From: Chrysomallon squamiferum
Lineage: Eukaryota > Animalia > Mollusca
Direction of reading: 5' to 3'
NCBI GenBank assembly: GCA_012295275.1
Contig: CM022678.1
Coordinates: 2,294,001-2,358,000, forward strand
Length of the DNA stretch: 64,000 nucleotides
The notes under the pieces are model-generated. The model searched no databases, was not told the origin of the DNA, and was given only the letters and a program-made list of their open reading frames with translations. Positions 15,450 to 63,174 of the stretch are shown here, in pieces. Each line of letters opens with the position of its first letter. The first letter of the stretch is position 1. Made by a program: the position numbers and the translations under genes.

Positions 15450-17729
15450 AAATTTAGTTTTTTGAATTTGAAATTTTAATATGGAGTTTTTTCTCATTAA
15501 AATTATTTTTGACATACCAGGTTATATAAGATTGACAATAGCTATGTTCTAAATTTATCAACATAATTAAACGAAAATTTATTATTTATTAAATTACATC
15601 CCTAAGATAAATTAAATCAAAAGATAAATACTATAATACAATTTTGTAAATATTTGTGAGTGAAATGTTTATTATTAATGTTGTCGCTGTCGTTAATTTT
15701 TGAAGTGGACAAGTTTGAACTTGTTAATCACGATTTCCGGTGATTGAACAGAACCACGTGATTTAAAATGGAGAAATTGAGGCATTGATTTGAGGTATTG
15801 TTCGCTATTTTATAATTATGTTGTATGTCCAGAAATGAAAAGTTTACCAGCTTCATATGTTGTATTAAAATAACTAACTAAAAACAGTTACATATGAGCA
15901 GTTAGAGTTGAAAGTGTGGTCTACTGAAGAACTCAGTGTTAAATTCTCTAGGAGTTTAAACTGAACAAAAAAGAGTGACACCTGCCTTAAATTCATTGTA
16001 ATACTTGTCTGGAAAATGCTGAGTGATTAATAACACAAGTGTTACAAAGACATTACCGTAAACTGAGTTGTGAAAGAACCCACAGGCAACAACGAAATGT
16101 AAAAGTTGTGTTAATTGTCAAACTATTTTTTATCAAAGTATTTTTATCACCAGTCCCATCTAACACTGAAAATATAATCTCAAAGTTATGCAATTGCAGA
16201 GTTCATAAAATAGTTTAAGAAAGCTGATTCAGAGAGAAAATGTTACATTCAGTCTCTAGATTACATCTGTAGTTAAAGGGTTCAGTGAAAAGTAAACATT
16301 CAGTTGCCTCTAGCATCCAATTCATCTCTACAGTTAAATGTTAGATTTGTCAAATAATCAGTTGCTGTCATTTCCAGTGCTAAGCTGATTCCACTTCGTT
16401 TGTGTATATAAAATGTTTTGATGATACCCAAATGTGCTCCAATAATTCAAAAATAGACTCCTGACTGGCCAGGGCAGAATTGTTAAAGCCTTGTTTTACA
16501 GGTGGACTGTTAGTTGATGAAATTACTAATGACAGTGAGTGTAGTCAAGCTAATACCAAATACATTTGCTGGACATCACTTCTGTATCATTCCTTTTGTC
16601 TGCCATATTTGTGCTTCTGACGTTTTCCTTCTTGTCATATTTACTGTGAATGACTCAGCTGTTGAATACAGTGGAGGTAAATATTCATATCTGATGCATG
16701 AACATTCTGCAGTTTGGATAAATTATGGATACATATTCGCAAGGTTTCACTTATAGTTTTTGTATAACTTAATTTAGTACTGATATTGAGAAAACTGAGC
16801 ATATAACTTAGTAAAATTAGTCTGATATTATATATACATTTTTATTGTTTATATTACAATTTAGTGTGAGTATTGAGAAAACTAAGAATATAATTTACTG
16901 AAACTATTCTCATATTATCTGCTCATTTTCATTGTTTATTTAACTTAATTTAGTAATAATAATGAAAAATGTTTCAATATAAGTTATTGAAACTATTTTT
17001 ATATTGTTTATTTACTTAATTTAGTAAAAGCATTATTATGATATGGGAATTTACATTGTTTATAGAGCATAGTTTGATATTAGGGTTAACAAAACTAAGA
17101 ACATAACCAAGTAAAACTATTTTTATAATTATTAGATTTACATAATTTAATAGTGCAGTTCAGAAAAAATACTATAAAGGCTTTGTGATTATGATTATAC
17201 ACGAGAGGAGGTTTTTCAGTTTTTCCTAACAGAGATGTTTCTCTGTCAGACAGTATGACAAAATTGTTTATATCTTTATCAGTGCAGTATACCTCAGTTT
17301 ACTGTTTACTTTTTGATAAGAAATTCTAAATGGACAAAATTATTATTTGTGTGTAAAAATGTAGCTTTTCAATTTATTGTTTACTTTTTATTACCATTTG
17401 TAAATTGACTGAAACTGATAATAAATTAACAATTCAAACGGCTTTATATACAGTCTGACAGACGAAAACATCAAAAAGGAAAATAAAAAGATAAATGACC
17501 AGAAAAAATATAAACATTTACACACTAATTTCTCCCGACTATTATAATTATTGTGTTGACCATTATTTACTGTAATACTAAGGTCATATGTCACAGCATC
17601 TGTGCATAATTAGTTAACAATATTGAGAACATTGTATACAGCAATACTGTTTAGACAAATTGTATTCCACTGTATTCTGCCAAATCTCTACATACAGATA
17701 AAAGCATTTTTTTTTTTTTTTTTTTTCAG

Positions 17730-17778
17730 ACACTACTACTATGTTTAATAATTATGTCTAATTCTCAGGATTTTGCAG
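17730..17778 (+). CDS. Candidate start-codon exon (ATG 17754: MSNSQDFA+G) of the STAND-ANK gene
   Basis: Long poly-T tract + cag acceptor, ATG TCT AAT TCT CAG GAT TTT GCA G|gtaaaa, ending in phase 1 and compatible with the RHIM exons; homologous segments end at 18195, 18662 and about 18987. Confidence 0.42.
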
Positions 17779-17842
17779 GTAAAAACATTTTTGGAAATTA
17801 TGTATTGAAATTGTGAATTATTAAAAAAATATTAGACTGCAG

Positions 17843-17905
17843 TACAACAGCTAGCAGACACATCTCATTCCAGTTCTTTTCAGTTAGGAAATAACTATGT
17901 ATCTG
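17843..17905 (+). pseudogene. RHIM-like cassette exon 1 (xQQLADTSHSSSFQLGNNYVS), probable pseudo-exon
   Basis: 63 nt, homologous to siblings, FQLG-NN core; the donor reads ataaat instead of gtaagt and the polypyrimidine tract is lost. Confidence 0.55.
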
Positions 17906-18267
17906 ATAAATTTAATAGATAACAGAATACACAGTAGTCATTAGTAGTACTTTTCTGTTAGACATTGTGACCCGAACAACATAGATACATGCACAATATA
18001 CAATGTATATTTATCTCTACCTACATTTAGCACATACACAAAAACGTACATATACACACATATACATACAGAGACACATACACAAATATATTCAAACAGA
18101 GTCACAGTGTATGTGTGTTAAACTGCATGTTGATATATCTCTACACATAGATTATAAATATTTAATAATGTTATATAATTCTCAGAATTTTGCAGGTAAA
18201 AATATTTTTAGAAATTATGCATTGAAATTGTGAATTATAAAAATGTATTTAATCTGTTTCACAGCAG

Positions 18268-18330
18268 GACAAGAGCCAGCAGACATATCTAATTCTGGTT
18301 CTACTGAAATAAGCGGTAACACTATAAACC
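18268..18330 (+). CDS. RHIM-like cassette exon 2 (xQEPADISNSGSTEISGNTIN), intact splice sites, degenerate core
   Basis: ctgtttcacagcag| (NAGNAG acceptor) ...63 nt...AAACC|gtaagt; phase 1-1; homologous to siblings but the QIG core is replaced by EIS. Confidence 0.68.
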
Positions 18331-18734
18331 GTAAGTTAAAAACTGAAAGTTTTCTCTTCCCTACATGTTTAATAGATAACACAGTACATAGTAGTCATTA
18401 ATACTACTTTTCTGTCACACATTGTAACATGAACAACATAGAAACATGCACATAAATTCATAGACACATTGCATACATACCTGTACTTACATTTAGCACA
18501 TACACAAAATATCTACATGCAGACTTGGAGTAAACAGACACACACAAATATATTCAGACGCAGTGTATGTATGTTTAACTGCATGTTGTCATATCTCTAT
18601 ATCTAGATACAAAAAACTGCTAATATATTTAATAATGATGTCTAATTCTGAGAATTTTGCAGGTAAAAACATTTTCTGAAATTATCCATTGAAGGTGTGA
18701 ATTATAAAAATGTATTTTCTCTGTTTCACTCCAG

Positions 18735-18799
18735 TACAACAGTCAGCAAACCTAAGTCATGTAGTTGTTGCTCAAATAGGAAATAACTATGTAAGCGGG
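18735..18799 (+). CDS. RHIM-like cassette exon 3 (xQQSANLSHVVVAQIGNNYVSG); 65 nt, frame-shifting as assembled
   Basis: ttctctgtttcactccag|...AGCGGG|gtaagt; AQIG-NN core; 2 nt longer than sibling exons, within a G-run. Confidence 0.6.
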
Positions 18800-19059
18800 G
18801 TAAGTTAAAAACTGAAAGTTTTCTCTTCTCTACATGTTTAATAAATAACAGAATACACATCACAGTAGTCATTTTCAGAGAAACAGTGTATGTATGTTAA
18901 AGTGTATACTGTCATATGTCTACGTAAACATTGTTGTTGTTTTTTGTATTTCGAACACTGCTTTATTCAATTCTCAAAATTTTGCAGGTAAAAACATTTT
19001 TAGAAATTATGGATTGAAATTGTGAATTATAAAAATGTATTCACTCTCTTTCACTGCAG

Positions 19060-19122
19060 ATCATCAGCCAGCAAACGTATCTCATTCTTGCTCTTTACAA
19101 ATAGGAAATAAATATGTATACG
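19060..19122 (+). CDS. RHIM-like cassette exon 4 (xHQPANVSHSCSLQIGNKYVY), intact
   Basis: ctctctttcactgcag|...63 nt...TACG|gtaagt; phase 1-1; LQIG core followed by N, resembling the RHIM (I/V)Q(I/V/L)G tetrad. Confidence 0.78.
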
Positions 19123-20534
19123 GTAAGTTAAAAACTGAAAGTTTAATAGATAACAAAATAGATAATAGATGTTTAATAGGTAACAAATACATAGTAGTCA
19201 TTAGTACTTTTCTATCTGAACAACATAGAAACATGCACATTTTATATGTATTATTTCAAATTTATAAAAAAAAAACATATTTCTAAAAACGGTTACGGAA
19301 AAGAAAATGATTGTGCAAATATTTTTCGGATAACCCATTAATAGCTCAAATAGAATTTACACAATCACAGATACACAGACAGATAATAACATATAAACAA
19401 ATACACACACAGACATTCACACATACAAACACGTTCAGGCATAGCATAAGTTCTGACTGAGATTTTCTTCTTAAACTGTTAATATAACAACATGAATTAA
19501 ACATGACTATATGCCTGTCATTATTATTATCTGTAAATACTAAATATACTGCAGAGTATACGTAACAACAAGAACAACAACAACAACAACAACAGCAATA
19601 AACAGTGGGGCGTCTAACGCAGTTGCAAGGAATCTGTAATTAACAACGTTGTCACGTAACCAAATCAGAACCCTGCGACGGGCGTAACACTCTTCCCCAA
19701 AAAGAACACTAACCAACATACAGTCCTCCCTGTATCGGGTAGATAGATACCCGATTTGTTTCGGTTCTAAGGGTATTCAGGGAACAAGGCCATATATGTA
19801 TTTATATTTACTGTTAAATCATTAGAAACACAAAAACACAAGTTTAGATTTAAAGAATATTTGTATTATGTTATCTAACAATAGTTATTTACCGAGTAAG
19901 CTTACAATGCTTCCACTGCCAATTACAAAACGTTTTACGCCACAAAATCACTCTCACCACATACGTGAACATGTGGGAGATATTAAAGATGTTTAAACTA
20001 CCACATCCCAAGATGTATTTGAATATGCAACAGTATCAAATTAACGTACTGCTTAGTGGGATGTTGACGTAATAATCAGTTAATCATAACATCGGTTTTG
20101 ACCTCAAATTCCCACTATTCTCACCCATTGTTTTAGAGATAATAACCCACAGTTAACTTCGATCAGTCTGATCTCAGATTGCCAGCTGTTTTCCAAAATA
20201 ATGGTTATACTATTTCAATACTTAAACATATACATTTTATTATTTAGGAACGACCATATAGGTCGTCTTTTAAAATTCCTTCTCCAGATTGGTGCTGAGA
20301 CTGGTTTCAACTTCAGCAGACATGCAGACGCTAGTGGGTCCCCAAAACAACATTTCACAATAGCTAATATAATTTTTAAGGAAATATGACATCCATTACG
20401 TATTAAAGAGGAGACTGGTTGTCTCTGTCACACCAACAGTAACAATAAACAAGAACATTAGTGATAAGAAACAAGAGCAGTATTTCTGAAAATAGTAGGA
20501 GTAATTATATAAAGTAAATAACAAAGATGGAGTC

Positions 20535-21270: not shown

Positions 21271-21303
21271 TAACGTCTGATGGAAGAGGATTCAATATCA
21301 AAG
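21271..21303 (+). CDS. 33-nt phase 1-1 linker micro-exon (xTSDGRGFNIK) of the STAND-ANK gene
   Basis: ttttatattatttcag|TAACGTCTGATGGAAGAGGATTCAATATCAAAG|gtattt; length is a multiple of 3, no stop, and it joins the 21576 exon in frame (G+AG=Glu). Confidence 0.75.
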
Positions 21304-21575
21304 GTATTTTGTTATTTTATTTTTTATATTTTTTTTTAAAGTTTTCAAAGATTTTCATAAATAGATAGAAAATCATCTCGTTACATTTACTTCATCTACA
21401 ATTGTGACATCTTTCTATCATCATTAAATTCTGATGAACTAAAATTATGACAAAAAACTACTGCTTTATTTCAAAAACTTCACATCTGATGAACAGTCAA
21501 AAACTATTTACATTGTAAACTATGTTTTAAACGGTCAATAACAGATACTATTTTTTTGTTTATGTTGTGATACAG

Positions 21576-24500
21576 AGACAACCAGGCCAGTGTTAAACTC
21601 AGTTGACTGGAGTGTCTATGTTGAAACAAGAGCAGAGAAAAGAGGTTTGAGACTTTTGAAGACATATGGTGTTGTGATTGTAGTAGGAAGTCCAGGTTCA
21701 GGAAAGACAACTCTCGCTTTGAGTATGATGAGACAGATAGAAATAGAAGAAAAAAGAGAATCTTACTTGCTGACTCATTACAGTGAATTCAATGACATCT
21801 CTCTATCTGAAAATAAGAAATGTGTTGTTCTAATTGATGATATATTTGGTAAGACTAATCTTGTTTCAGATTTTATAGAGTTGTGGAAACAAAAATTTCC
21901 AAAGATATGGAGTCTTGCTCAGGATGGTTCTTTGAAATGTATTATTACTTTAAGAAAACAAATATATTCAGGAAATGAAACAAATTTGATAAATTTAGAT
22001 CTCTTTAATGAGAAACATATTCTTGACCTGCAGAGTCATGACTATTGTCTGGAGTATAATGAAAAGGAAGAAATTCTAAACAAATATCTTGAAGAAAAGG
22101 ATGTTCCAATGGATGAAACTGATAAAATGACTGTCATTAAAAGTTCATGTACAGAGTTAGGATTTCCTCAGGTGTGTGTGCATTATGTTAATTCAAGTGA
22201 TGCACAGAAAAGAGGAGTTGAGTTTTTTAAGAAACCTGTAGAATATCTTCAAAAAGAACTGAGAGATTTGAAAACTGTCGAATCTTCACAGATCAACTAC
22301 CTGGTTCTACTGCTGATTTTGTTCAAACAAGGCAGTCTCAGCATTGATTCACTGGATCCATCTCAAAATGGCTCTGACAGTGACATAATGAAATTAGTAA
22401 GACAACTAGAGCAATTCTGTCAAAGTCTAGAAAACACTGGTCTTACAGATATCAAGGAAACAGCTGCTGTTATGTGTGGTACCTATTTGAAGCGTTGTGA
22501 CAATAAATACACATTTATTCACCAGTCTGTGTTTGACTGTTTGTTTCTGATGTTTTCAGAGAAAGCAGCAGAGTTGCTAGAAGTGTGTCCTGTCTTCATG
22601 TTGTTAGAATATGTTGTGACGCCTGGAGTGTCTAACAAAACTCACATTACAATGACTGTGAGACCTGACTGCTTTGATGTTCTTGCTCGCAGATTTACTG
22701 ACCTGCTGGCGTCAGATAATTTCACGGAAATTATTTCACATCCATCACTGAAAGATGAAGAGTTTCTAAAATACCTCATAGAAGAAAAAAACTTTTATGG
22801 TAGGTTGTCTGAAATTTTACATCAAAGACTATCTGGAGAACATCAAAATCAATATACTTATATATCATTTGTACATGTAAACTCAACTGAAATTATTAAT
22901 TGTATTTCATATCTTGTTGACTATCATTCTAGGTATACATTTCCTATCAGTCTTGTGGGAAATGTTATAAATTCAACATCTGTTCCAAGTGAGTGTATCG
23001 TGAATAAACATAGAACATTGTCAAAATATTTCACATCAAAACTGTTTGAAACGGACTTAATAGACATGAAAAAAGAACTTTTGGATATTTCTTGTTTGTT
23101 TGGTGATGAAGATGTTGTGAGAATATTGCTAGAATCAGGTGTTGTTCCAACATTTGATACACTGACTGCAGCTGCTTGTTCAAAAACAGACAGTGCTACC
23201 GTACTCAAAGAACTGTTTCAGTGTAAAAAGGACATGCAACTGAATATGTATTCTCGCTTGTTACATACTTCAATACTTACAAGTAAAATGAACATTTCTT
23301 GTCTGTTGGCTGACATGATAAATAAAGAGGAAAACAACAGTGAAATAAAGGAGAAAGCTGTGAAACTGTTACTGGTTAGGTTCCATAGACATACAAATGC
23401 GATTGAGAAGTGTCTGGGAAAATCAGCGACGTTTAAAGTCGATGTAAGCCTTCTGTTTAAGAAACTGATTACCACTGATATAATAAACAAAATTAAAGGC
23501 ATTGCTATCGTTGCTGGTGGTCAGAACACTTCAACTGTTATAAAAGAAATAGTGAAACTGAAACCTGATTGTATAAATGATGAGAACAGAGATAAAGTAC
23601 TGTTAGAAGCAGCTATGTGGGGATGTGCTGACACAGTGAATTTTCTCATTGAGCAGAGACAAAATGATACAGATGAGAACAACTGGAAGAAAAGTGAAGT
23701 ACTGAAAGTAGCAGTGATGTTTAACAGTGTAGATGTTGTTCAGTGTCTACTTGATAAAGGAGCTGATCCTAATGTGAATGTAGCTGTTAACAAGAATTTG
23801 GTTGAGTCATTTAAACAGGAAAGTGAAGTGGAAATGTTGACTTCAGACACACCCCTCCACATTTCAGTTCTGCGTGGTGACTTAGATATAGTAAAATCAC
23901 TGATAAAGAGAAAAACTGATGTTAATGCAGTAAACAGTGAGGGAGAAACTCCACTTCATGAGACTGTAAAAGCAGTGAGGCACAGAAAGGAAATAGCTTT
24001 GTTGTTACTGCAAAATGGTGCTGATATTAACATAAGAGATACACGAAAAAATACAGCATTGCACATAGCATCTCAAATTGACATAGATCAGGTAAAAGAC
24101 ATAGTAAAGAAAGGCGTTGAAATAAATGTAACAAACACTGCAGGTGAAACTCCTCTTTTTATATCCTTAAACACCAACAGACGGGAAATAGCTTCGTACT
24201 TACTAGAACAAGGAGCTGATTTCACTTTAACAGATAATGATAAAAATTCTGTTTTACATTTAGCAGCTAAATATGGAAATATAGAAATTGTGACCGCACT
24301 GATTGAAAAAGGTTTTGATGTAAATACTAAAAACAGCCGAGGTGAAACTCCTCTTTTTGCAGCTCTTGTTTTCTGTTTGCGTGATACATCTCTGAATATT
24401 GAAAAATATAAAGTATTTTTCTATTTACTGCAAAATGGAGCTGATCCTAATTTAACAGACAATCATAGCAATTCTGTTTTACATTTAGCAGCTAAATATG

Positions 24501-27343
24501 GAAATCAAAAAATTGTGACAGCACTGACTGAAAAAGGTTGTGATGTAAACATTAGAAACAATAGAGGTGAAACTCCTCTTTCTACAGCTCTTACTTACAA
24601 TGAACATTATCCTTCTCTGAAGAATGAAAACTGTAAAGTAGCTTTGTATTTATTGGGATATGGAGCTGATCCTAATTTAACAGACAATGATAACAATTCT
24701 GTTTTACACCTAGCAGCTGGATTTGGAAATATAGAAATTGTGAAAGCACTGATTGAAAAAGGTTTTCATGTAAATACTAAAAACAGTCGAGGTGAAACTC
24801 CTCTTTTTAAAGCTGTATTCTCTCGTAATAGCAAAGTAATTTTGTATTTACTCAGACATGGAGCTGATATTAATATAGCAGACAGTGATAATAATTCTAT
24901 TTTGCACGAAGCAGCTAAATATGGGATTATAGAATTTGTGACCACACTGATTGAAAAAGGTCTTGATGTAAATATCAAAAACAGCCGAGGTGAAAGTCCT
25001 CTTTTTACAGCTCTTACTCACAATCAACTTCATCTATCTCTGAACAATGCAAAATGTAAAGTAGCTTTGCATTTACTGGAACATGGAGCTGATCCTAATT
25101 TGACAGACAAGGATAGCAATTCTATTTTACACCTTGCAGCTGAATATGGAAATATAGAAATTGTGAAAGCACTGATTGAAAAAGGTGTTGATGTAAATAT
25201 TAAAAACAGCCGAAATCGGACACCTGTTTTTATAGCTGTTGAGGCTAAACAGACAAAAATAGTTTTGTATTTACTGGAACACGAAGCTCATCCTAATTTA
25301 ACAGAGTATGATAATATTTCTGTTTTTCACGTAGCAGCTATAACTGGAAATATAGAACTTATGACAGCACTGATTGAGAAAGGTTTTGATATAAATATTA
25401 GAAGCAGCCGAGGTCATACTCCTCTTTTTCTCACTCTTATTGAATGTAATCTATTTCTGATGGATGAAAAATGTAAAGTATTTTTCTATTTACTGGACCA
25501 TGGAGCTGATCCTAATATGAGAGACAATGATAACTATTCTATTTTACACGTAGTCGCTGGACATGGAAATCTTAAAATGGTGACTGCACTGGTTGAAAAA
25601 GGTGTTGATGTAAATATTAGAAACAAACATGGTGAAACTCCTATTTTAATATCACTTACTCACTGTGAACTTGATCCATCTCAAAGGTTTGAAAAATGTA
25701 AAATAGTTTTGTATTTACTGGAACATGGAGCTGATCCTGATTTAACAGACAATGATAACAGTTCAGTTTTACACAAAGCAGCTGCGCTTGGAAATCTGGA
25801 AATTGTGTCTGCACTGATCAGAAAAGGTGCTGATGTGAATATGATAAACAGACAAGGTCTCACTCCTCTTTTTTACCCTCTTAGTGAATGTAAACATGAT
25901 CTATCACTGATGGATAAAAAATGTAAAGTATTTATGTATTTACTGGAACATGGAGCTGATCCTAATTTAACAGACAATGATAACAATTCTGTTTTACACG
26001 TAGCAGTTCAAGCTGGAAATATAGAAATTGTGAAAGCACTGATTGAAAAAGGTGTTGATGTGAATATTAAAAACAACCAAGGTAAAACTCCTCTTTTTAT
26101 AGCTCTTGCTTCCTGTGTGCATGATACATCTCTGAATATTGAAAAATATAAAGTATTTTTCTATTTATTGCAAAATGGAGCTGATCCTAATTTAACAGAA
26201 AAAGATAACTATTCTGTTCTACACGTAGCAGCTGAATTTGGAAATATAGAAATTGTGAAAGCACTGACTGAGAAAGGTTGTGATGTAAATATTAAAAACA
26301 GCCAAGGTCAAACCCCTCTTTTTGCAGCTGTTGCTTTCTGTCAGCGTGATCCATCTCTGAATATTGAAGAAAATAGAGTATTTTTCTATTTACTGCAAAT
26401 TGGAGCTGATCCTAATTTAACAGACAATCATAACAATTCTGTTTTACACCTAGGAGCTGCATTTGGAAATATAGAAATTGTGAAAGCACTGATTGAGAAA
26501 GGTTGTGATGTAAATATTAAAAACAGCCAAGGTCAAACTCCTCTTTTTGCAGCTCTTGTTTTCTGTTTGCGTGATACATCTCTGAATATTGAAAAATATA
26601 AAGTATTTTTCTATTTACTGCAAAATGGAGCTGATCCTAATTTAACAGACAATCATAGCAATTCTGTTTTACATTTAGCAGCTAAATATGGAAATCAAAA
26701 AATTGTGACAGCACTGACTGAAAAAGGTTGTGATGTAAACATTAGAAACAATAGAGGTGAAACTCCTCTTTCTACAGCTCTTACTTACAATGAACATTAT
26801 CCTTCTCTGAAGAATGAAAACTGTAAAGTAGCTTTGTATTTATTGGGATATGGAGCTGATCCTAATTTAACAGACAATGATAACAATTCTGTTTTACACC
26901 TAGCAGCTGGATTTGGAAATATAGAAATTGTAACAACACTGGTTGAAAAAGGTCTAGATATAAATATTAAAAACAGTCTAGGTGAAACTCCTCTTTTTAC
27001 TGCTGTTAAGTGTGCACATTGCATACTAATTTTGTATTTACTACAGTGTGAACCTTTGAAGAAAGTAAATTTCTATATACAACGACATCAAGCTTTGAAG
27101 AATGTAGTTTTGTATTTGCTGGAACATGGAGCTGATCCTAATTTAAGAGACAATGATAACAATTCTGTTTTACACCTAGCAATAAAACATGGAAATACGG
27201 AAGTTGTGACAGCACTGATTGACAAAGGTGCTGATGTAAATATTATTCTTGATAAAGCAAAGAGTTGTAACAAAAGGGGAATTGTTTTACGTTTACTGAG
27301 AATGGTGCTAAATATATTAACAGATAGATACATTTTGTTATAA
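21576..27343 (+). CDS. Terminal coding exon of an NLR-like STAND NTPase (nSTAND3-type) + ankyrin-repeat protein (about 1920 aa in this exon)
   Basis: Uninterrupted 1917-aa ORF. Walker A VVIVVGSPGSGKTT, Walker B CVVLIDDIFG, IITLR sensor-like strand, GFP and YTFIHQSV (winged-helix/MHD-like) motifs, then about 25-30 ANK repeats (GETPL..A / SVLHLAA..GN.EIV..L.EKG.DVN). The track's GTG start is not the real start: an acceptor (tttgtttatgttgtgatacag|AG ACA ACC AGG CCA GTG) at 21575/21576 enters the ORF in phase 1. Confidence 0.93.
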
Positions 27344-31874: not shown

Positions 31875-33520
31875 GTAAGTAAATTGTGGAATGTTCTAAC
31901 AAAACATATTTTATCATGTTGATTTCCTCATACTTGGTAATAAGTAAATTATTCAAGGGTAATATTTGACATTTCAGTGTATATTCTCAAGTTTTGGTTA
32001 GTGTATAATAAAAGTAATGTTTAGAATGTCTGAATGTATATTCTCTAGGTTTTGGGTGGAATATAATAATATAATATTTGGCATGTTTCAATGTATTTTC
32101 TCTGGAGTTAGGGTAGAGTATGATAAATGTAATGTTTGGTATATTTCAGTGTATATTCTCTAGGTTTGCGTGGAGTAATATAAATGTAATGTTTGGTATG
32201 TTTCAATGTATTTTCTCTGGAGTTAGGGTAGAGTATGATAAATGTAATGTTTGGTATATTTCAGTGTATATTCTCTAGGTTTGCGTGGAGTAATATAAAT
32301 GTAATGTTTGGTATGTTTCAATGTATTTTCTCTGGAGTTAGGGTAGAGTATGATAAATGTAATGTTTGGTATATTTCAGTGTATATTCTCTAGGTTTGCG
32401 TGGAGTAATATAAATGTAATGTTTGGTATGTTTCAGTGTATATTCTCTAGGTTGGGGTAGAGTATGATAAATGTAATGTTTGGTAGATTTCAGTGTATAT
32501 TCTCTAGGTTTGGGGTGGAGTATGATAAATGTTAAGTTTGGTATATCACAGCACCTCGGCAATCAGGTCTTTCTCCTGTTTTTATATCTGCTTCCATATT
32601 CCTTGCGAAAAAAACCATAACAAAATTCAAATAAGAAAATGTTTCCCAAAATGTTGGCTGTTGACAGTACATCATGCAGTAGGTTCTTATAAGCAGAGTT
32701 CACTGTAACATCTGTAATCTGCATAAAAACAATCTTAATTCTTTTGTCTGTAAAAACCCCCCGTCACTTTCTGGAATCTTTCACAAGTAAATTGTGGAAT
32801 GTTCTAACAAAACATATTTTATCATGTTGATTTCCTCATACTTGATAATAAGTAAATTATTCATGTGTAATATTTGACGTTTCAGTGTATATTCTCTAGT
32901 TTTGGTTAGTGTATAATAAAAGTAATGTTTAGAATGTCTGAATGTATATTCTCTAGGTTTTGGGTGGAATATAATAATATAATATTTGGCATGTTTCAAT
33001 GTATTTTCTCTGGAGTTAGGGTAGAGTATCATAAATATAATGTTTGGTATATTTCAGTGTATATTCTCCAGGTTGGGATCGAGTATGATAAATGTAATGT
33101 TTGGTATATTTCAGTGTATATTCTCTAGGTTTGCGTGAAGTAATATAAATGTAATGTTTGGTATGTTTCAGTGTATATTCTCTAGGTTGGGGTAGAGTAT
33201 GATAAATGTAATGTTTGGTAGATTTCAGTGTATATTCTCTAGGTTTGGGGTGGAGTATGATAAATGTTAAGTTTGGTATATCACAGCACCTCAGCAATCA
33301 GGTCTTTCTCCTGTTTTTATATCTGCTTCCATATTCCTTGCGAAAAAAACCATAACAAAATTCAAATAAGAAAATGTTTCCCAAAATGTTGGCTGTTGAC
33401 AGTACATCATGCAGTAGGTTCTTATAAGCAGAGTTCACTGTAACATCTGTAATCTGCATAAAAACAATCTTAATTATTTTGTCTGTAAAAAAAACCCAGC
33501 ACATTCTGGAATCTTTCACA
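31875..33520. repeat. Two arrays of the same 57-59-bp satellite inside a local tandem duplication (31875-32785 ~ 32785-33520)
   Basis: Same unit as 44520-45890; the flanking unique sequence (agtaaattgtggaatgttctaac..., gcaatcaggtctttctcc...) is repeated twice. Confidence 0.9.
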
Positions 33521-44519: not shown

Positions 44520-45890
44520 GTCATGTAATGTTTGACATGTTTTAGTGCATATTCTGTAGGTTTGGGTAGAGTATGATAAATGTAATATTTGTTATGTTTC
44601 AATGGATTTTCTTGGGAATTGGGTTAGTGTGTGATACATTTAATGTTTGGTATATTTCAGTGTATATTCTCTAGGTTGGGGTGGAGTATGATAAATGTAA
44701 TGTTTGGTATATTTCAGTGTATATTCTCTAGGTTGGGGTGGAGAATGATAAATGTAATGTTTGGTATGTTTCAGTGAATATTCTCTAGGTTGGGTTGCAA
44801 TTTGATAAATGTAATGTTTGGTATATTTCAGTGTATATTCTCTAGGTTGGGTAGAGTATGATAAGTGTAATGTTTGGTATATTTCAGTGAATATTCTCTA
44901 GATTGGGTTGCAGTTTGATAAATGTAATGTTTGGTATGTTTCAGTGTGTATGGCTAGGTTGGGGTGGAGTGATAAATGTAATATTTGGTATGTTTCAGTG
45001 TATATTCTCTAGGTTGGGTAGAGTATGATAAATGTAATGTTAGGTATATTTCAGTGTATATTCTCTAGGTTGGGTAGAGTATGATAAATGTAATGTTTGG
45101 TATATTTCAGTGTATATTCTCTAGGTTGGGGTAGAGTATGATAAATGTAATGTTTGGTATATTTCAGTGTACATTCTCTAGGTTGGGGTGGAGTATGATA
45201 AATGCAATGTTTGGTATATTTCAATGTGTATGGTCTAGGTTGGGGTGGAGTGATAAATGTAATGTTTCGTATATTTCAGTGTACATTCTCTAGGTTGGGG
45301 TGGATAAATGTAATGTTTGGTATGTTTCAGTGTGTATGGTCTAGGTTGGGGTGGAGTGATAAATGTAATGTTTGGTATATTTCAGTGTATATTCTCTAGG
45401 TTGGGGTGGAGTATGATAAATGTAATGTTTGGTATATTTCAGTGTATAATCTCTAGGTTGGGGTAGAGTATGATAAATGTAATGTTTGGTATATTTCAGT
45501 GTATATTCTCTAGGTTTGGGGTAGAGTATGATAAATGTAATGTTTGGTATATTTCAGTGTATATTCTCTAGGTTGGGGTAGAGAATTATAAATGTAATGT
45601 TTGGTATATTTCAGTGTATATTCTCTAGGTTGGGGTAGAGTATGATAAATGTAATGTTTGGTATATTTCAATGTATAATCTCTAGGTTGAGGTAGAGTAT
45701 GATAAATGTAATGTTTGGTATATTTCAGTGTATATTCTCTAGGTTGGGGTAGAGTATGATAAATGTAATGTTTGGTATATTTCAATGTATAATCTCTAGG
45801 TTGGGGTAGAGTATGATAAATGTAATGTTTGGTATATTTCAGTGTATAATCTCTAGGTTGGGGTATGATAAATGTAATGTTTGGTATGTT
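44520..45890. repeat. 57-bp tandem satellite, about 24 copies
   Basis: Unit tatgataaatgtaatgtttggtatatttcagtgtatattctctaggttggggtagag. Confidence 0.95.
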
Positions 45891-46017
45891 TCAAGCTGGT
45901 TGCTCTGGGACTAAAGTGGGAATGATGATTCCAAACAGCAGCATAGAAAACAACATATTCATCAATCCAAGCATATTGACTCTGTTGGTAAATAAATAAA
46001 TAATATATATATATATA

Positions 46018-48733: not shown

Positions 48734-51159
48734 ACATTTTATCACAACACTGTATTATATTTTTTCATATAATTTGATTTATTTACTACTACTACTACAA
48801 ATAAAATAAAAGTTAAAAGAAAATACATTATTTCGAGAATTTTATAACACAGAATGGATGTAAATCAATATGTTGAAATATTAGATACAGGAAGAATTAA
48901 ATGTGTATCACTAAATGCTATGAACGATAAAGAATCTGATAAACTTTGCACTAACACGTCACTAAATATTTCTATTAATATCTAACAGATTTCCTCGTCA
49001 TAAGAGGTGTATCACTGATCTTAGTACTGTGTACGGTTAAATATTTTATTTAATCATCTGAACTGTGTGATAAATTATTGCATTTGGATGTGTGTGTATA
49101 TCGGTGTGAGTGTAATAATATTGTTACCGGTGAAAGCAGAATAAATAAATTATCTATCGTTATTCTTTTCTTTTTTTGTTCTATTTGATTAATTATTGTT
49201 ATGTCATTATTATTATTATTATTATTTGTTTATTTATTTATTTATTTTTCTCATTTTGTATTTTTCACTAAGAAATGGTGTTAGAATTGAATTTCATTTA
49301 ATATTATATTAAAGGTGCTTTGATTTTCATTGTGGAATTATACTAAAGAAAACGGATATTCTCTTAGAAAAAGAGCTCTCTTTTTAAGAGGAAGTTTAAT
49401 GAACACTTTGTAATGGCTGCTTCCATGTGAAGTACAAATCGTTATCGAACGATTATGTCAAATGATACGAGAGGAATAACTGGTCCTGAAGTTACATTAA
49501 ACTGACTGAATTCGACAGAGCTGCTATGATGGGTGATGCAGTGATAATTAAAATCACAACTCTTTGAAATAATGAAAATCATTGGATCATTTATTTTATT
49601 AAATATTAAAAATAATGTTATATTTCTTTCAATTTTCAAAAGTTAAATACCAGTGTAAGTGTTCAAGAATATGGACGTAAAGCTGAAGAGGTTCGACCTT
49701 TGTGTAAGTTAATTTATTTATATTATTTTTAAGTGTGTATAAATTATTATATTAAATACAACATTTTTTGGTTTCCAGTTCGTAGTTGGAAATAAACCAT
49801 AAAGTCATCAAAAGTTCTCAGAAATCTGAACTAGATTCATATACTTTTCAAATCAAATCAAGAACTACTTAAAATTGAAAAATATTTGTAAATTGTCCAA
49901 TATTTGTACTTATTTAAGTTATTAATGAATCGTGAATTGTTTTTATTTGTTTGCATATTACTAAAAGTTATGTTAATATACCTGTCCTTGTCATACTATT
50001 TTCCTGTGCCGTAGACGATGCACATAAAATATTTTTTATTATTAATTTAAAAAACAAGATTAGCCACTGCATTAAGACTGTGAGTTTTCTCTTTCACTAC
50101 TTTTGTTTCTGACAACACTGTATAATGAGTACTAGTATTTGAATTTACCTGTATTGTATAATATGTATCTATGGCTTCCAGGTAAATCTTTGGCCTCCAG
50201 CCTACATGTATAACTAGTATTTGAATTTACCTGTATTATGGTCAGTGCTTGCAGGTGAATCTGTGGCTTGGCCTATGAATTTACCTGTGTTACACAGTTT
50301 ATAGGTGTGGCTTACAGGTAAAACTGTGTAACCTGTTCAGCACTGTTACACCTGTACAGGTTTTGTTTTGTTCACACAGGTACGGGCCACATGAAGTGTT
50401 AAGGAAGGAAGACTTCAGCATGAAGGGACAGCTGACCTGTACAGGTTTTGTTTTGTTCACACAGGTACACGTGAAGTGATGAGAAAGGAAGACTTCAGCA
50501 TGAAGGGACAGCTGACCTGTACAACACTGTTACACCTGTACAGGTTATGTTTTGTTCACACAGGTATGGGCCACGTGAAGTGTTAAGGAAGGAAGACTTC
50601 AGCATGAAGGGACAGCTGACCTGTGAGTTCAAGTTTGCAACGTTTTCCTGCAGACAACGTCGACAACACCAGCAAGACAGCGAGGAGAAAGACTACTCAC
50701 TTCAAATCCTGGAAGCTCTTGAACCAGCTGTCTGTCTGGTAAGTTTGTATGTCTCTGTCTGTCTGGTGAGTTTGTATGTGTGTCTCTCTGTCTGTCTGGT
50801 GAGTTTGTATGTCTCTATCTGTCTGGTGAGTCTGTATGTGTGTCTGTCTGTCTGGTTAGTTTATATGTCTCTATCTGTCAGTCTGTCTATTTGTTATAAT
50901 TTATAAACTAATATATAATTTAACCTTAATGATAAAAACACTAATTGTACAATAATCTAAAAAATAATGATGGCAGAAACTTAAAACAAAATAAATTGAC
51001 CATTTTGTTGCACACTTTACTTTATGAATTTTCTTTTTTTGCAGAGAAAAATTGATGCATTTTTTATTATTTGTGTTTACACTAAAAAAAAGCACCTAAA
51101 AATACAAGCCTAAATGATTTCCTGTGCTTTAAAGTAGTTGTATTACAGGTTTGTTCTTC

Positions 51160-52478: not shown

Positions 52479-52871
52479 GCTGCTACTACTACTATTACTA
52501 TTACTACTGCTACTATTACTGTTACTACTACTACTACTATTACTACTACTCCCACTACTACTGCTGCTACTACTACTACTACTACTACTACTGTTTCTAT
52601 ATTTAGATTGAACTTCGGCGACAAGACCAGTCACTCTCCAGACAGCTTCTCGGCATTAGACGTGACCTGTCACAACTCACACTGAGTCGAAGCTGCGAGA
52701 GGCACCAGGACATGCTGGATGATGCACAGTGGGAAATGGGAAATGGAGGAATTTCAGCAACTGTCAAGAGTGCTCGATATTCCGTGCTACAGCTGTCTGT
52801 CTCCAGATCCTCTTAAACATATCGGTGTAACAAAACTGAACATCAGCACAAGACGATTTTCAACTTGTTAG
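51724..52871 (+). pseudogene. FAM167: FAM167-family pseudogene copy B: first exon 51724-51836 (donor mutated to AT), middle exon deleted, last exon 52607-52871 frameshifted
   Basis: IELRRQDQSLSRQLLGIRRDLSQLTLSRSCERHQDMLDDAQWEM/EEFQQLSRVLDIPCYSCLSPDPLKHIGVTKLNISTRRFSTC* matches the FAM167 C-terminal domain (...[20 protein letters not shown]); a 7-nt duplication (GGAAATG, about 52734-52747) shifts the frame. Confidence 0.85.
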
Positions 52872-55921: not shown

Positions 55922-58472
55922 CATTATTATTGTATAATATCACATTTTTCAGTAATAGAATTAATTTCATCCCATCACAAAAGTAATAAACTTTTTATGA
56001 TTTCAGGCATTGTTAACCCAGTGTAAAGTTAAGGTCCAGTCCACTAAACAGTTAACAAGAATTCACATATCAAAAACAAAAGAACAAGTTGCATAAACAC
56101 TTAACATCTTTTATTTTATGAAAGTTAAATAAAAACATTAAATTTTGTTCAGTCCACTGAAACAAATTCCAAGTTGGTTTGTATGAAGTCAGAGTTCATG
56201 AATTATTTTATGCTTTCAACATATTTTAAAAGTAAAAGTTAACAGATCCCAGAATATTTCTCATTGACTGATGACTTCTTGCACAAGAACGAGCGAATGA
56301 ATGCAAAAGAATGAAAGTACGATTTCTTGCCATGTACAAACTACAGGTTGTTTTCTATATATATATATATATTTTTATAATAAATTGTTTACAAATAATT
56401 TCTTTAAGCATTTAAAAGATGCTTTCTCTAATTAAATATACATGTATTTAGTAATACAAGAAATTATTTGTAAAACCAATTAACATTATGTAAAGGTATT
56501 AAAATTTGAATACTGTATTATTTACAGATGTTTATAAAGATGATAGCTGCCAACCACAGCAGAGATGTACATTAACATGAAATCATGAAGTGATCAAAAT
56601 TTGGAATTTAGAATGTAGCAGACTATTGAAAGCTGGAGGCTACAAATTCTCAAAGTGTATTTATACAAACGGGCAATGAAGAAAAAATGTACAACTTGTG
56701 ACAGCATCAACCTGATTTGAAGTATTTCTCACTATTTTATAATTATTTGTTCCAAACACTAAAAGTTAACCAAGTTCATATGTTGTATTAAATAAATAAT
56801 GCATTTTAAAGAATTTTTAATTTTTAAATCTAATTGAATACAAGTAAATATGAATAGTTAGAATTGAAAGTATGGTCTGCTGATAAACTCAATGTTAAAT
56901 TATCTATGTGTTTAAACTGCTTTAAATTTATTGTAATATTTGCCTGGAAAAATGGGAATATTTTACTATGATTTATAAAACAAGTGTTACAAAGGCTGGT
57001 AAATAAGCTGAGAAAAACGAATTAGTTTTTTAACAGCAAGTAATTGGCAATAAGAAAATGAAACAAATGTGAAAAATGGAACAATTAGATTTTTTTTACA
57101 TCACAGTATTATCACATAATAACATGTTTCTTTGAGTCTCAGATTAAATCTGTGGTTAAAGGTCCAATAACAAGAAAACTGCTACATGTTCTGTGTGACT
57201 GACTACACTGTCTCTCTCCTCTCTGTATTTACATTTTTATTTTTATGGAAGTGATAGTTACTGTGACTCCAAAATGCCCAAAATGTGCTTCAGTGATACA
57301 TGACTGGCCAAGGCAGAATTGTTAAAGCTTTGTTTTGCACTCTGTCAAACTGTTAAGTTAAATATTAATGGTTTTTATGTGAGTGTACTGCAGTTTGAGA
57401 AAAACATGATGCACTGAACTGTCACAGTGAAATCAGTTGTAACTGTCATTCAGAAACATGGAACATCATTCTTTTGTTAATCATCACAAAGTTGTAATTA
57501 CTTGTCACATGTTGTCATCGTCTGTATTTTCTCCAGGTGTATTTTTATGACATTTCCATTTGTATCATTTATATCACATGATTTACTATGGTAACAGTAT
57601 AATTAAAACTATTCAGATATTATATATACATTTATTTTGTTTATATAATTTAATGCAAATGACAAAACTAATAATATAATTTAATTCTTTCTAACTGTTC
57701 TGATAATTATTATATTTACTACAAAACTGATATATATCTTAGCACAACTATTGTGATAATTTTATTTACTACAAACCTATGATATAATTTAGAATAACTA
57801 TTGTGATAATTATTACATTTCTTCAAAACTAAGGTTTAAGTTAATATAGCTATTCTAATAGTTATTATATTTACAATAAACTACAGTATATCTGTATGAC
57901 TATTGTGATAATTATTTTATAGATATAATTTAGTACTGCAACTGACAAAACATCCTACAAATGCTTTGTGATAATTATTAGTTAATTGTTATAAAATATT
58001 TTGAATGAACTGATTTGAATATGATGTAAGAGTAATTAGTTACAACAATATTAAGTTTTCGCTTTAGCAGTATTGTGATAATTATGATTTCATGAGTATT
58101 TTTATATAATAATCTAACATCAGTATTTACAAAATGAGGACATTTATTAAAACAATTCTCATTTCATTATTTAAAATACTTTCAAGAATATATTTATGGA
58201 ATAAAAGTTGAGAATGCAGTTTGAGCTGTTTTCATTTAGGCAGAGCTGAATGACATATCAAATAGTATGCACTGTCTGTGGGTAGGTGTAAATGAAATAT
58301 CACTTGTTGTTAATAAGAAAGAATAGCCTATGAAGTGACAGCAGCGGATTTCTTCTTTTGTTATCTCAATGTTCCTTAATCTTATGTCTCTTCTGATATA
58401 AATAAAAAGAATTAGATAATTAAAAAAAAATGTTCCTCCTTTTATATTAAAAATTATATTATTTTTTTACAG

Positions 58473-58690
58473 CTCAGCCAATATGGATAACAAAAACGAG
58501 AGTTCAGAAGTTTCTTCTAACAATGCAGAATCTGTGACAGCTGTTTCTTCTGCAGAGTCTGTGACAGCTGATTCTTCTGCAGAGTCTGATCTAACAGGAT
58601 TATTACAAATTCTGCAACAATTGTCTGAGAAATTTGTTGATGTAAATACTAAAAACAATACAGGTGAAACTCCTTTTTGCAGCAATTGTG
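58473..58690 (+). CDS. Locus 2 start exon (ATG 58483): Ser/Ala/Glu-rich repeats plus a partial ankyrin fragment
   Basis: tttttttacag| acceptor; MDNKNESSEVSSNNAESVTAVSSAESVTADSSAESDLTGLLQILQQLSEKFVDVNTKNNTGETPFCSNC; TGTG|gtaata donor (phase 1), conserved in the duplicate at 63174. Confidence 0.6.
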
Positions 58691-60324: not shown

Positions 60325-62059
60325 GTAAGTTAAAACCTGAAACCTATTTAATAGATAACAGAACTATATGTCACATTAATCATTAGTATTTTACCATCAA
60401 ACACTATGACCAACACGTGTCAACACAGACATAACACACACACACTTACATACATACATACATATGTCTACCCACTACCAAGGGTGCACAAATGAGGTTT
60501 GCTCAAAACCGTCCTTTCATAGCTCATTTTCAATTCGTCCACATTTTGTGCTCTGCTGAATGACAATTTGCTCATGGTTGAAATTAAACCACCATTCACT
60601 ACATCAACACCACTGGCCACTGAGTGACATTCTTTGGTGTTCAGTCTTGCTGCACTGCTACTTGAACAACGTCAGTGCTGCAGAGGTTAACCCAATAAAA
60701 CCAAAACCTTGTTCTTTAAGAATCTGTAAAAATGAGATCAACATTAATATTTTTGATACAAGTAATATCATTTTTATCTTTGAGTGAGGGGAGTAAAAGA
60801 AATGAAAAAATATTTTAATTGGTTTTACCTGTTCGGAAATAGCTGTCCGATCTATGTGTGCAGGGCTGGGAATCACGGCATTTTGTTTCATTTGCAATAT
60901 TCTCGTTTCTTTAATTTAACAATTTCAAAAATTTACTAATTATTCCTTTCAAATTATCAAAGCAATATTAATTATCCAGAACACTTCCGACTTTTATTTA
61001 TGAATCTAAATAAATTACACTTTATTAAAAGAAAAACAGAAAGAAAGAAACTTTATATTACTGTATTAATTTATTGCAGTCATAGTCCTTAGTATATATG
61101 TATTAATACCCATTTATAAACTATAATACATAATTTTTAAATAGTGTTACAGAAAAGAAAGTGATTATGCAAATATTTTTTGGGTTATGTAGAATTTACA
61201 CACACACATACACAGACACATATGAACATATAAATAAACACACAGACATTCACACATACATACATATTCAGGCATAGCATAAGTTCTGACTGAGATTTTC
61301 TTCTTAAACTTGATCTAGCTCAACATAACTTAAACATGACTATATATGCATGTCATTATTATCACCTGTAAATACTAAATATACTGCAAAGCATACATAA
61401 CAACAACAATAACAACAACAATAATAATAACAATAACAACAGCAACAATAAACAGTGGGGCATCTAAGGCACTCACAAGCGACCTGTAATTAACACCATC
61501 GTCACGTAACCAAATTAGAACCCTTTATTGGGCATAACACTCTTCCTCCAAAATAACACTAACTATACATAGGAAACTCCCTGTATCGGGTAGATAGCTA
61601 CCCAATTTGACTTGACTCTAAGGCCATATATGTATTTATATTTAATGTTAAATCATTAGAAACACAAAAACAGAAGTTTGGATTAAAGAATATATGATCT
61701 AATAATAGTTCTTTACCAAGTAAGCTTACAATGTCTGCACAGCCGATTGCAAACAGTTTTACGCCACAAAATTCACATACATGAACATATGAGAGATATT
61801 TAATATGTTTAAACTAGGAAAGCCCAAGATGTATTTGAAGATGCTAGTACATCAAACTAATGTTCTGTTTAGCAGGACTTTGACGTGACAGTCAGTTAAC
61901 TATAACACCCCTGTGGTATCTATGTTTACAATTACTGATGATCAGTGTTGATCTCAGATACCCACTATTCTCACCCACTGTTTTAGAGATAACAGTCTAC
62001 AGTTACTGTGATCAGTCTGATCTCAGATTACCAGCTGTGCTCCAAAATAATGGTTATAC

Positions 62060-62967: not shown

Positions 62968-63174
62968 CTCAACCAATACAGATGACAAAAAAGAGTTCAA
63001 AAATTCTTTCTAGCATCACAGCCGAGTCTTCCTCAGACAACATCACAGCTGAGTCTTCCTCTGACAACATCACAACTGAGTCTTCCATTGACATCACAGC
63101 TGAGTCTTCCTCAGACAACATCACAACTGAGTCTTCCTCGGACAACATCAATCCTAGAGTAATTTTTAATTATG
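62968..63174 (+). CDS. Duplicate Ser-rich exon (ITAESSSDN repeats), 207 nt, phase 1-1
   Basis: tttttacag|CTCAACCAATACAG...TATG|gtaata; homologous to 58473-58690; about five 24-27-bp coding repeats; open frame. Confidence 0.55.

Follow-up and report, generated by a model that had tools for sequence, protein, structure and literature searches.

Predicted RHIM-like motif exons in tandem upstream of an nSTAND3-ankyrin gene of the gastropod Chrysomallon squamiferum: a candidate amyloid module in probable turnover

Can a tandem array of small exons, each encoding a short RHIM-like peptide, offer a gene a set of amyloid signalling motifs from which splicing may choose? This question is raised by a stretch of 64,000 nt from the mollusc Chrysomallon squamiferum (assembly GCA_012295275.1, contig CM022678.1, positions 2,294,001 to 2,358,000 of the forward strand; hereafter the window, in whose own numbering all positions are given), an AT-rich piece of eukaryotic DNA (GC content of 24–35% per 2 kb) in which four duplicated units lie 2–4 kb upstream (5′) of a large nSTAND3-ankyrin exon on the same strand. 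A preliminary description had proposed a four-way splicing-selectable amyloid code. Our analysis contradicts this proposal, as two copies are broken and one has no core; the reading that we favour, and to which we give an even chance, is that a RHIM-like motif exon on an NLR-like sensor, likely an immune receptor, has been duplicated fourfold and undergoes birth-and-death turnover, which has left copy 4 in frame and motif-bearing.

The exon array, its gene and a paralog

Self-comparison of the window placed a fourfold tandem duplication, with units of ~325–467 nt, at about 17640–19260 (+): each unit consists of a segment A that ends in TTTTGCAG with GTAAAA following, an intron of 64–72 nt, a motif exon B and a downstream intron; and in every unit a homologous AG acceptor is followed by a stretch encoding the noted core in the phase-1 frame. 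The earlier claim of four units, each with a 63-nt exon (65 nt in one), thus holds for the homology of the units, but copy 1 is without a donor and copy 3 measures 65 nt. In B1 (17843–17905, +; core FQLG), a deletion took away GTAAGTTAAAAACTGAAAG, the 63rd base is followed by ATAAAT and no donor stands at the homologous place; among 18 GT sites within ~300 nt, the only one that is in frame and stop-free would end the exon after 30 nt, ahead of the core, and B1 is likely unusable as a cassette. B2 (18268–18330, +; 63 nt, phase 1-1) has intact AG and GT and has lost the core (TEIS). B3 (18735–18799, +; 65 nt; core AQIG) shifts the frame, no strong donor restores it, and joining B3 straight to the 33-nt exon downstream brings a stop at the first codon of that exon. 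B4 (19060–19122, +; 63 nt, phase 1-1; core LQIG), also with intact AG and GT, is the only array copy both in frame and motif-bearing, and B2 and B4 are the only 63-nt exons with AG and GTAAGT. Lesions are therefore found in three of the four copies (donor loss, core loss and frameshift in B1, B2 and B3, respectively). An assembly artefact is ruled out, because the units differ at 24–40% of exon bases and by indels.

Segment A is the sole candidate start found, the region further upstream not having been systematically scanned. It carries an in-frame ATG in units 1–3, not in unit 4, and gives three candidate start exons: A1 (17730–17778, +; poly-T acceptor, ATG at 17754, donor GTAAAA), A2 (18151–18195, +; 45 nt, ATG at 18168) and A3 (18607–18662, +; ATG at 18635).

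Downstream, a stop-free frame of 1933 codons at 21542–27340 (+) encodes an nSTAND3 NTPase and ankyrin repeats. The large terminal coding exon (21576–27343, +; ~5.8 kb, open frame) matches PF20720 above cut-off (E 3.7e-24), has both Walker A (GSPGSGKT) and Walker B (VLIDD) intact and continues into ~30 ankyrin repeats, as expected of an nSTAND3-ankyrin protein; a PDB search with the NTPase part found nothing (best E 0.06). A linker exon of 33 nt (21271–21303, +; phase 1-1) is indicated by in-silico joins and by RNA contigs of related copies in which the large exon follows directly on its end. The closest relatives are four Gigantopelta aegis proteins, with 39–47% identity over the N-terminal 500 residues, followed by Haliotis and bivalve proteins; G. 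aegis LOC121387078 and LOC121387848 and the Haliotis and bivalve relatives have the same domain order as here. Unlike here, the N-termini of molluscan nSTAND3-ankyrin relatives vary in kind, with repeats or short tails and, in 2 of 26 scanned, a DED, and among the proteins compared the tandem motif exon is known only from this window. The ankyrin array itself (24100–27010, +) is built of 198–225 nt DNA repeats that are ~76–82% alike; RNA contigs contain many alternative joints between these repeats, which suggests repeat shuffling among related copies.

We tested 28 in-silico joins from the three candidate starts. All 14 that include copy 3 stop after 30–86 codons, which rules out that its frameshift is offset by another B copy; four further joins are open but require the missing donor of copy 1; and the other ten are open over 1941–1984 codons and carry no motif exon, copy 2, copy 4, or copies 2 and 4. 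With the joins into the array predicted, 1962–1963 codons stay in frame when segment A is connected to copy 4, the 33-nt exon and the large exon. Only two of the four copies thus keep both splice sites and frame, and donor loss in copy 1 together with the frameshift in copy 3 rules out four free cassettes: the symmetric phase 1-1 structure, which had been said to let the exons be skipped or combined, is retained for copies 2 and 4 and not for copies 1 and 3. As only copy 4 is in frame and motif-bearing, a full-length receptor could carry zero or one motif; since the core of copy 2 is lost, there is at most one motif per full-length protein; and because only copy 4 keeps its core among the usable copies, no set of alternative intact motifs exists for choosing a partner specificity. 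The suggestion that splicing sets motif number or partner specificity is therefore not supported by the in-frame products in the form in which it was made.

Judged by its sequence, a paralogous 5′ region is the best independent evidence that the small exons code and get duplicated repeatedly. In self-comparison, 56.7–64 kb (+) is colinear with about 15.8–20.2 kb and represents the 5′ part of a paralogous gene, whose large exon would lie past the window end. Its three small exons P1 (59075–59152, +; 78 nt; core VVLG), P2 (60244–60324, +; 81 nt; motif core lost, IVSE) and P3 (63758–63820, +; 63 nt; core CQFG) are all in frame, each having a length divisible by three and no stop in phase 1, and a single register aligns them with the array exons; P1 and P3 were discovered through intron homology, not through the motif. 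The donor landmark GTAAGTTAAAAACTGA (with at most three substitutions) occurs six times in the window, always on the + strand, three times in the array and three times in the paralog. Two ATG-bearing exons, both ending in phase 1 (58473–58690 and 62968–63174, +), lie within the duplicated block of the paralog, so duplication recurs; further units may follow past the window end, where a repeated block points to them. Taken together, B4, P1 and P3 are intact, B1 and B3 broken, and B2 and P2 coreless, a mix that fits birth and death.

Two further observations concern the paralog. Its first ATG-bearing exon contains, at 58597–58689 (+) and after short Ser/Ala/Glu-rich repeats, a fragment that resembles the large exon's ankyrin repeats (tblastn E 5e-4). 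A block of ~1 kb, 76% identical between 19243–20210 and 61095–62059, follows the last motif-type exon in both genes and may be a mobile element that predates the gene duplication.

Motif register and divergence of the exons

In the available text of the literature, the mammalian RHIM core is given as (V/I)-Q-(V/I/L/C)-G, and aliphatic residues at positions −8, −6, 0 and +2 are described as needed for nucleation, the corresponding register residues of RIPK1 being Y531, I533, I539 and I541. We scored the exon peptides by a register rule of 8 points based on the numbering of RIPK1 and RIPK3: P1 reaches 7, B1, B3, B4 and P3 reach 6, and B2 and P2 reach 3. Shuffle P values are 0.001–0.021 for the five high-scoring exons; as background, a score of at least 6 occurs in 0.66% of 21-mers from proteins and in 1.4% of those from stop-free stretches of the window. 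These five of the seven exons share one RHIM register even though the array and paralog groups differ at 46–65% of exon bases. The four aliphatic positions are filled four of four times in P1, three of four in B4 and P3, and two of four in B1, B2, B3 and P2; P1, with the best register of the seven, has I, V, V and L at these positions, N at −4, and G, D and N at +3 to +5. The hydrophobic-Q-hydrophobic-G part of the RHIM/PP/BASS3 signature is present in B1, B4, P3 and, weakly, B3; its leading Gly is absent from all seven. The preliminary description was thus right in regarding the exons as RHIM-like and of coding type: they are homologous, fall into a RHIM-like register and sit at the N-terminus of an NLR-like STAND-ankyrin protein, in the place of the effector. 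From the peptides themselves, we consider it likely that the motif acts like a RHIM-type amyloid signal, yet it is not classifiable as RHIM.

Comparison of exon with intron columns confirmed that intron landmarks are conserved while the coded cores differ, and the proposed check of exon against flanking intron divergence showed that the exons change faster: among the four array copies, 34 of 59 exon columns are variable vs. 31 of 106 intron columns (Fisher p 5e-4), and without splice signals the intron count is 23 of 82 (p 5e-4). First codon positions vary in 16 of 19 codons and third positions in 7 of 19. The pooled proportion of synonymous differences (pS, 0.19) is near the intron rate (0.15–0.22) and the nonsynonymous proportion (pN, 0.35) is higher, a pattern better explained by selection on amino acids than by homogenisation of the introns. 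When all seven exons are compared, each of the 21 pairs, which are not independent, is more divergent in the exon than in the intron. Diversifying selection on the motif exons is therefore likely, not established.

The predicted protein has counterparts in architecture. According to the available text of PMC4262963, a motif-STAND-repeat order is found in fungal NWD2-type NLRs and in the Branchiostoma RHIM protein BF82280, and motif-STAND-ankyrin proteins are known to use amyloid signalling; bacterial BASS3 NLRs combine an amyloid-type motif, a STAND NTPase and a repeat sensor (10.1101/2020.01.06.895854, available text). Like fungal NWD2/HET-S NLRs, BASS3 NLRs and BF82280, the array-bearing gene places a short predicted amyloid-type motif N-terminal to a STAND NTPase and a repeat sensor (ankyrin here), by way of predicted joins into the array; unlike them, its NTPase is nSTAND3 rather than NACHT/NB-ARC, its host is a gastropod, and its motif is an own symmetric exon, present in tandem copies of which most have decayed. 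NLR-associated amyloid systems have a cognate effector with a matching motif, often encoded next to the receptor; within this window, no nearby effector gene turned up. With mammalian RHIM proteins (RIPK1, RIPK3, ZBP1, TRIF) the exons share a hydrophobic-Q-hydrophobic-G core in four of seven cases (F, A, L or C first), the −8, −6, 0, +2 register (full in P1, three of four in B4) and Asn/Asp after the Gly; they differ in having no strict core, no Gly before the core and no Pfam or PDB match, amyloid formation being predicted here. Our searches of the open-access literature listed no article that deals with RHIM-like motifs of molluscan nSTAND3 proteins, and the main text of PMC8195603 does not mention RHIM; motif-STAND proteins of molluscs may be included in the supplementary domain tables of that paper or in the PMC4262963 alignments. 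The available text of PMC7889193 states animal amyloid signalling beyond classic RHIM proteins as an open question.

Weighing the readings

A number of results weigh against the reading of RHIM-like motif exons in birth-and-death turnover. The register rule was fixed after the peptides had been seen, and 61 other six-frame positions of the window also reach at least 6. The strict (V/I)Q(V/I/L/C)G core is found in none of the seven exons (FQLG, TEIS, AQIG and LQIG; VVLG, IVSE and CQFG). Searches against Pfam RHIM (PF12721) and the RHIM amyloid chains of the PDB gave no match up to E 10, queries of 20–26 residues being weak tests; a profile search for homologs among 5.8 billion proteins, and the Atlas queried with copy 4, gave no RHIM or related match; and no partner gene with a matching motif was found among 81 stop-free window stretches filtered by length, complexity and GC, nor did the profile search yield one. 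Motif enrichment at homolog N-termini was absent in both tests (3 of 82 vs. 2.0 expected; 4 of 72 vs. 3 of 72 controls). A block upstream of segment A, excluded from the intron test and partly misaligned around poly-T, is nearly as variable as the exons (33 of 65 columns). The start exon of the array-bearing gene is uncertain, segment A being a candidate exon. As for the dN/dS ratio among units, a purpose-written M0 codon model gave an omega of 2.8–3.0 for the array copies, in the direction expected, but only borderline above 1 (p 0.049–0.075); on two array and two paralog exons omega was 1.8–3.3 (p 0.10–0.35). Finally, no array junction is among the RNA joints listed (15 of 135, all in the large exon) or the loose ends listed (24 of 461).

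The RNA data comprise four runs of one study, in which the gene family is present as short contigs with many related copies mixed; in run X1, 170 of 995 contigs placed are at least 99% alike. Loose ends at 21581 (run X2, three contigs) and 21593 (run X1, one contig) show the large exon preceded directly by the end of the 33-nt exon, and 4 of 25 bases of the X2 consensus there deviate from this copy; as RNA contigs carry this joint, the junction is real in related copies. Depth is 0–3.7 per bin over the array vs. 33–362 over the NTPase part of the large exon. This low depth speaks neither for nor against use of the array, since the values sum over many related copies, and small exons that have diverged would escape placement at 88% likeness.

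Of 26 nSTAND3-ankyrin homologs scanned, none had a RHIM match at E 0.01; a profile of the window motif cores against stored proteins gave nothing significant (best E 1.4); and short-protein homolog search, metagenome scans and Rfam found nothing. Homolog N-termini were usable in 91 of 153 cases for inspection by eye and in 82 for the first enrichment test, and the second test used 72, with Gigantopelta proteins and near-duplicates dropped. They appear Asn/Gly/Thr-rich by eye; a family-wide RHIM in distant mollusc homologs, suggestive on such inspection, is unsupported by both tests. The N-terminus of P0048 (Potamilus streckersoni) has the top RHIM-like score among the 72 held-out homologs (shuffle p 0.015), which is not significant across the set.

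Three rival explanations have to be considered. It is possible, although we think it unlikely, that the exons are real and fast-evolving, and encode no amyloid but a variable Asn/Ser/Gly-rich linker or other binding peptide whose RHIM likeness is compositional: the profile searches without match, the missing strict tetrad, the 1.4% background of the register rule in stop-free window peptides and the lack of homolog enrichment all agree with this, whereas the register is maintained in two exon groups that differ at about half of their bases, P1 and P3 were located without recourse to the motif, the exons occupy the effector slot of a STAND protein, and profile methods are known to overlook such motifs. 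Less probable still, in our view, is that the array is a dead remnant, the ancestral start exon being lost, segment A being a duplicated intron end and no array exon reaching protein. The ATG exon of the paralog at 58473–58690 has no recognisable counterpart here (~275 nt between shared anchors vs. ~905 nt in the paralog); none of the three paralog units contains segment A, which looks like a duplicate of the intron 3′ end (shuffle P 0.006–0.046); and A1 is overlapped by an out-of-frame ATG at 17741. Such a remnant would, however, be at odds with a large exon that stays open for ~1920 codons and whose first Met, without an upstream ATG, falls after the Walker A motif, with intact splice sites and frame in copies 2 and 4, and with amino-acid changes that outnumber silent ones among the copies.

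The array could also serve as a regulated switch, in which alternative starts A1–A3 and skipping of copy 2 or 4 yield motif-bearing or motif-less receptors, and transcripts that include copy 3, or that read through copy 1, yield short decoy or seed peptides; we regard this, too, as possible but unlikely. The frame survives skipping of copy 2 or 4; copy 3 with the 33-nt exon reaches a stop 30 nt before the last junction and gives products of 30–31 residues; Q-(I/L)-G-N-N-Y is retained in copies 1 and 3; and in an Argopecten relative, annotated isoforms are distinguished by a single N-terminal repeat of 58 residues, although that repeat is not the motif. A precedent for a RHIM switched off by splicing is ZBP1-S, the RHIM-less splice isoform that antagonises mouse ZBP1, a switch shown experimentally (PMC11535224, available text); in the present gene such a switch would be a possibility, and ZBP1-S does not arise from motif exons in tandem. 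A 63-nt cassette was also considered for Mytilus entries with a length difference of 21 residues and rejected, as these differ in their start sites. What speaks against a switch is that no array junction appears among the RNA joints listed, that donor loss and frameshift are the usual signs of decay, and that a single in-frame copy with a core leaves no code of alternative motifs. Birth-and-death turnover of a RHIM-like exon remains the reading that we prefer.

Neighbouring features and implications

Upstream of the array, the region 16215–16500 (+) is likely a 5′ untranslated exon or regulatory element: RNA contig cover is 16–46 at 16247 in three of the four runs, and a 39-nt block at 16462–16500 is 92% identical to 57301–57339 of the paralog. 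The 81 filtered stretches gave only RNase_PH and FAM167 matches; exon fragments of RNase_PH (E 1e-6) and FAM167 (E 8e-11) lie at 50475–50903 and 52686–52868 (+), between two nSTAND3-type loci. Minisatellite arrays with a related 57-nt unit, in 10, 7 and 24 copies, occupy 31972–33281 and 44523–45893.

By analogy with known amyloid-signalling NLRs, we propose that the ankyrin repeats would sense a ligand, upon which the NTPase would oligomerise and cluster the N-terminal motifs; the clustered motifs would nucleate amyloid and thereby recruit or seed a motif-bearing partner. As the motif is a single symmetric phase 1-1 exon, a duplicate is initially free of cost; duplicates would then diverge under selection, and most would die via donor loss, frameshift or core loss, splice variation being mainly a by-product that determines at most whether the motif is present or absent. 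A wider proposal, namely that gastropod nSTAND3-ankyrin sensors signal via a plug-in RHIM-like amyloid exon that duplicates and diversifies under positive selection, with splicing picking a motif-bearing receptor, a motif-less receptor or decoy peptides from the frameshifted copy, strikes us as distinctly improbable. A cockle iridovirus is described, in the text available, as encoding a CARD+RHIM protein that resembles bivalve proteins, so that both RHIM signalling and an arms race are plausible in molluscs.

Exons of 33–81 nt ahead of a huge nSTAND3-ankyrin exon are easily overlooked by annotation pipelines. If the peptides form amyloid, they would constitute a defined, fast-evolving module of 20 residues that is directly testable, and a mollusc NLR-like family would gain a fungal-style signalling mechanism.

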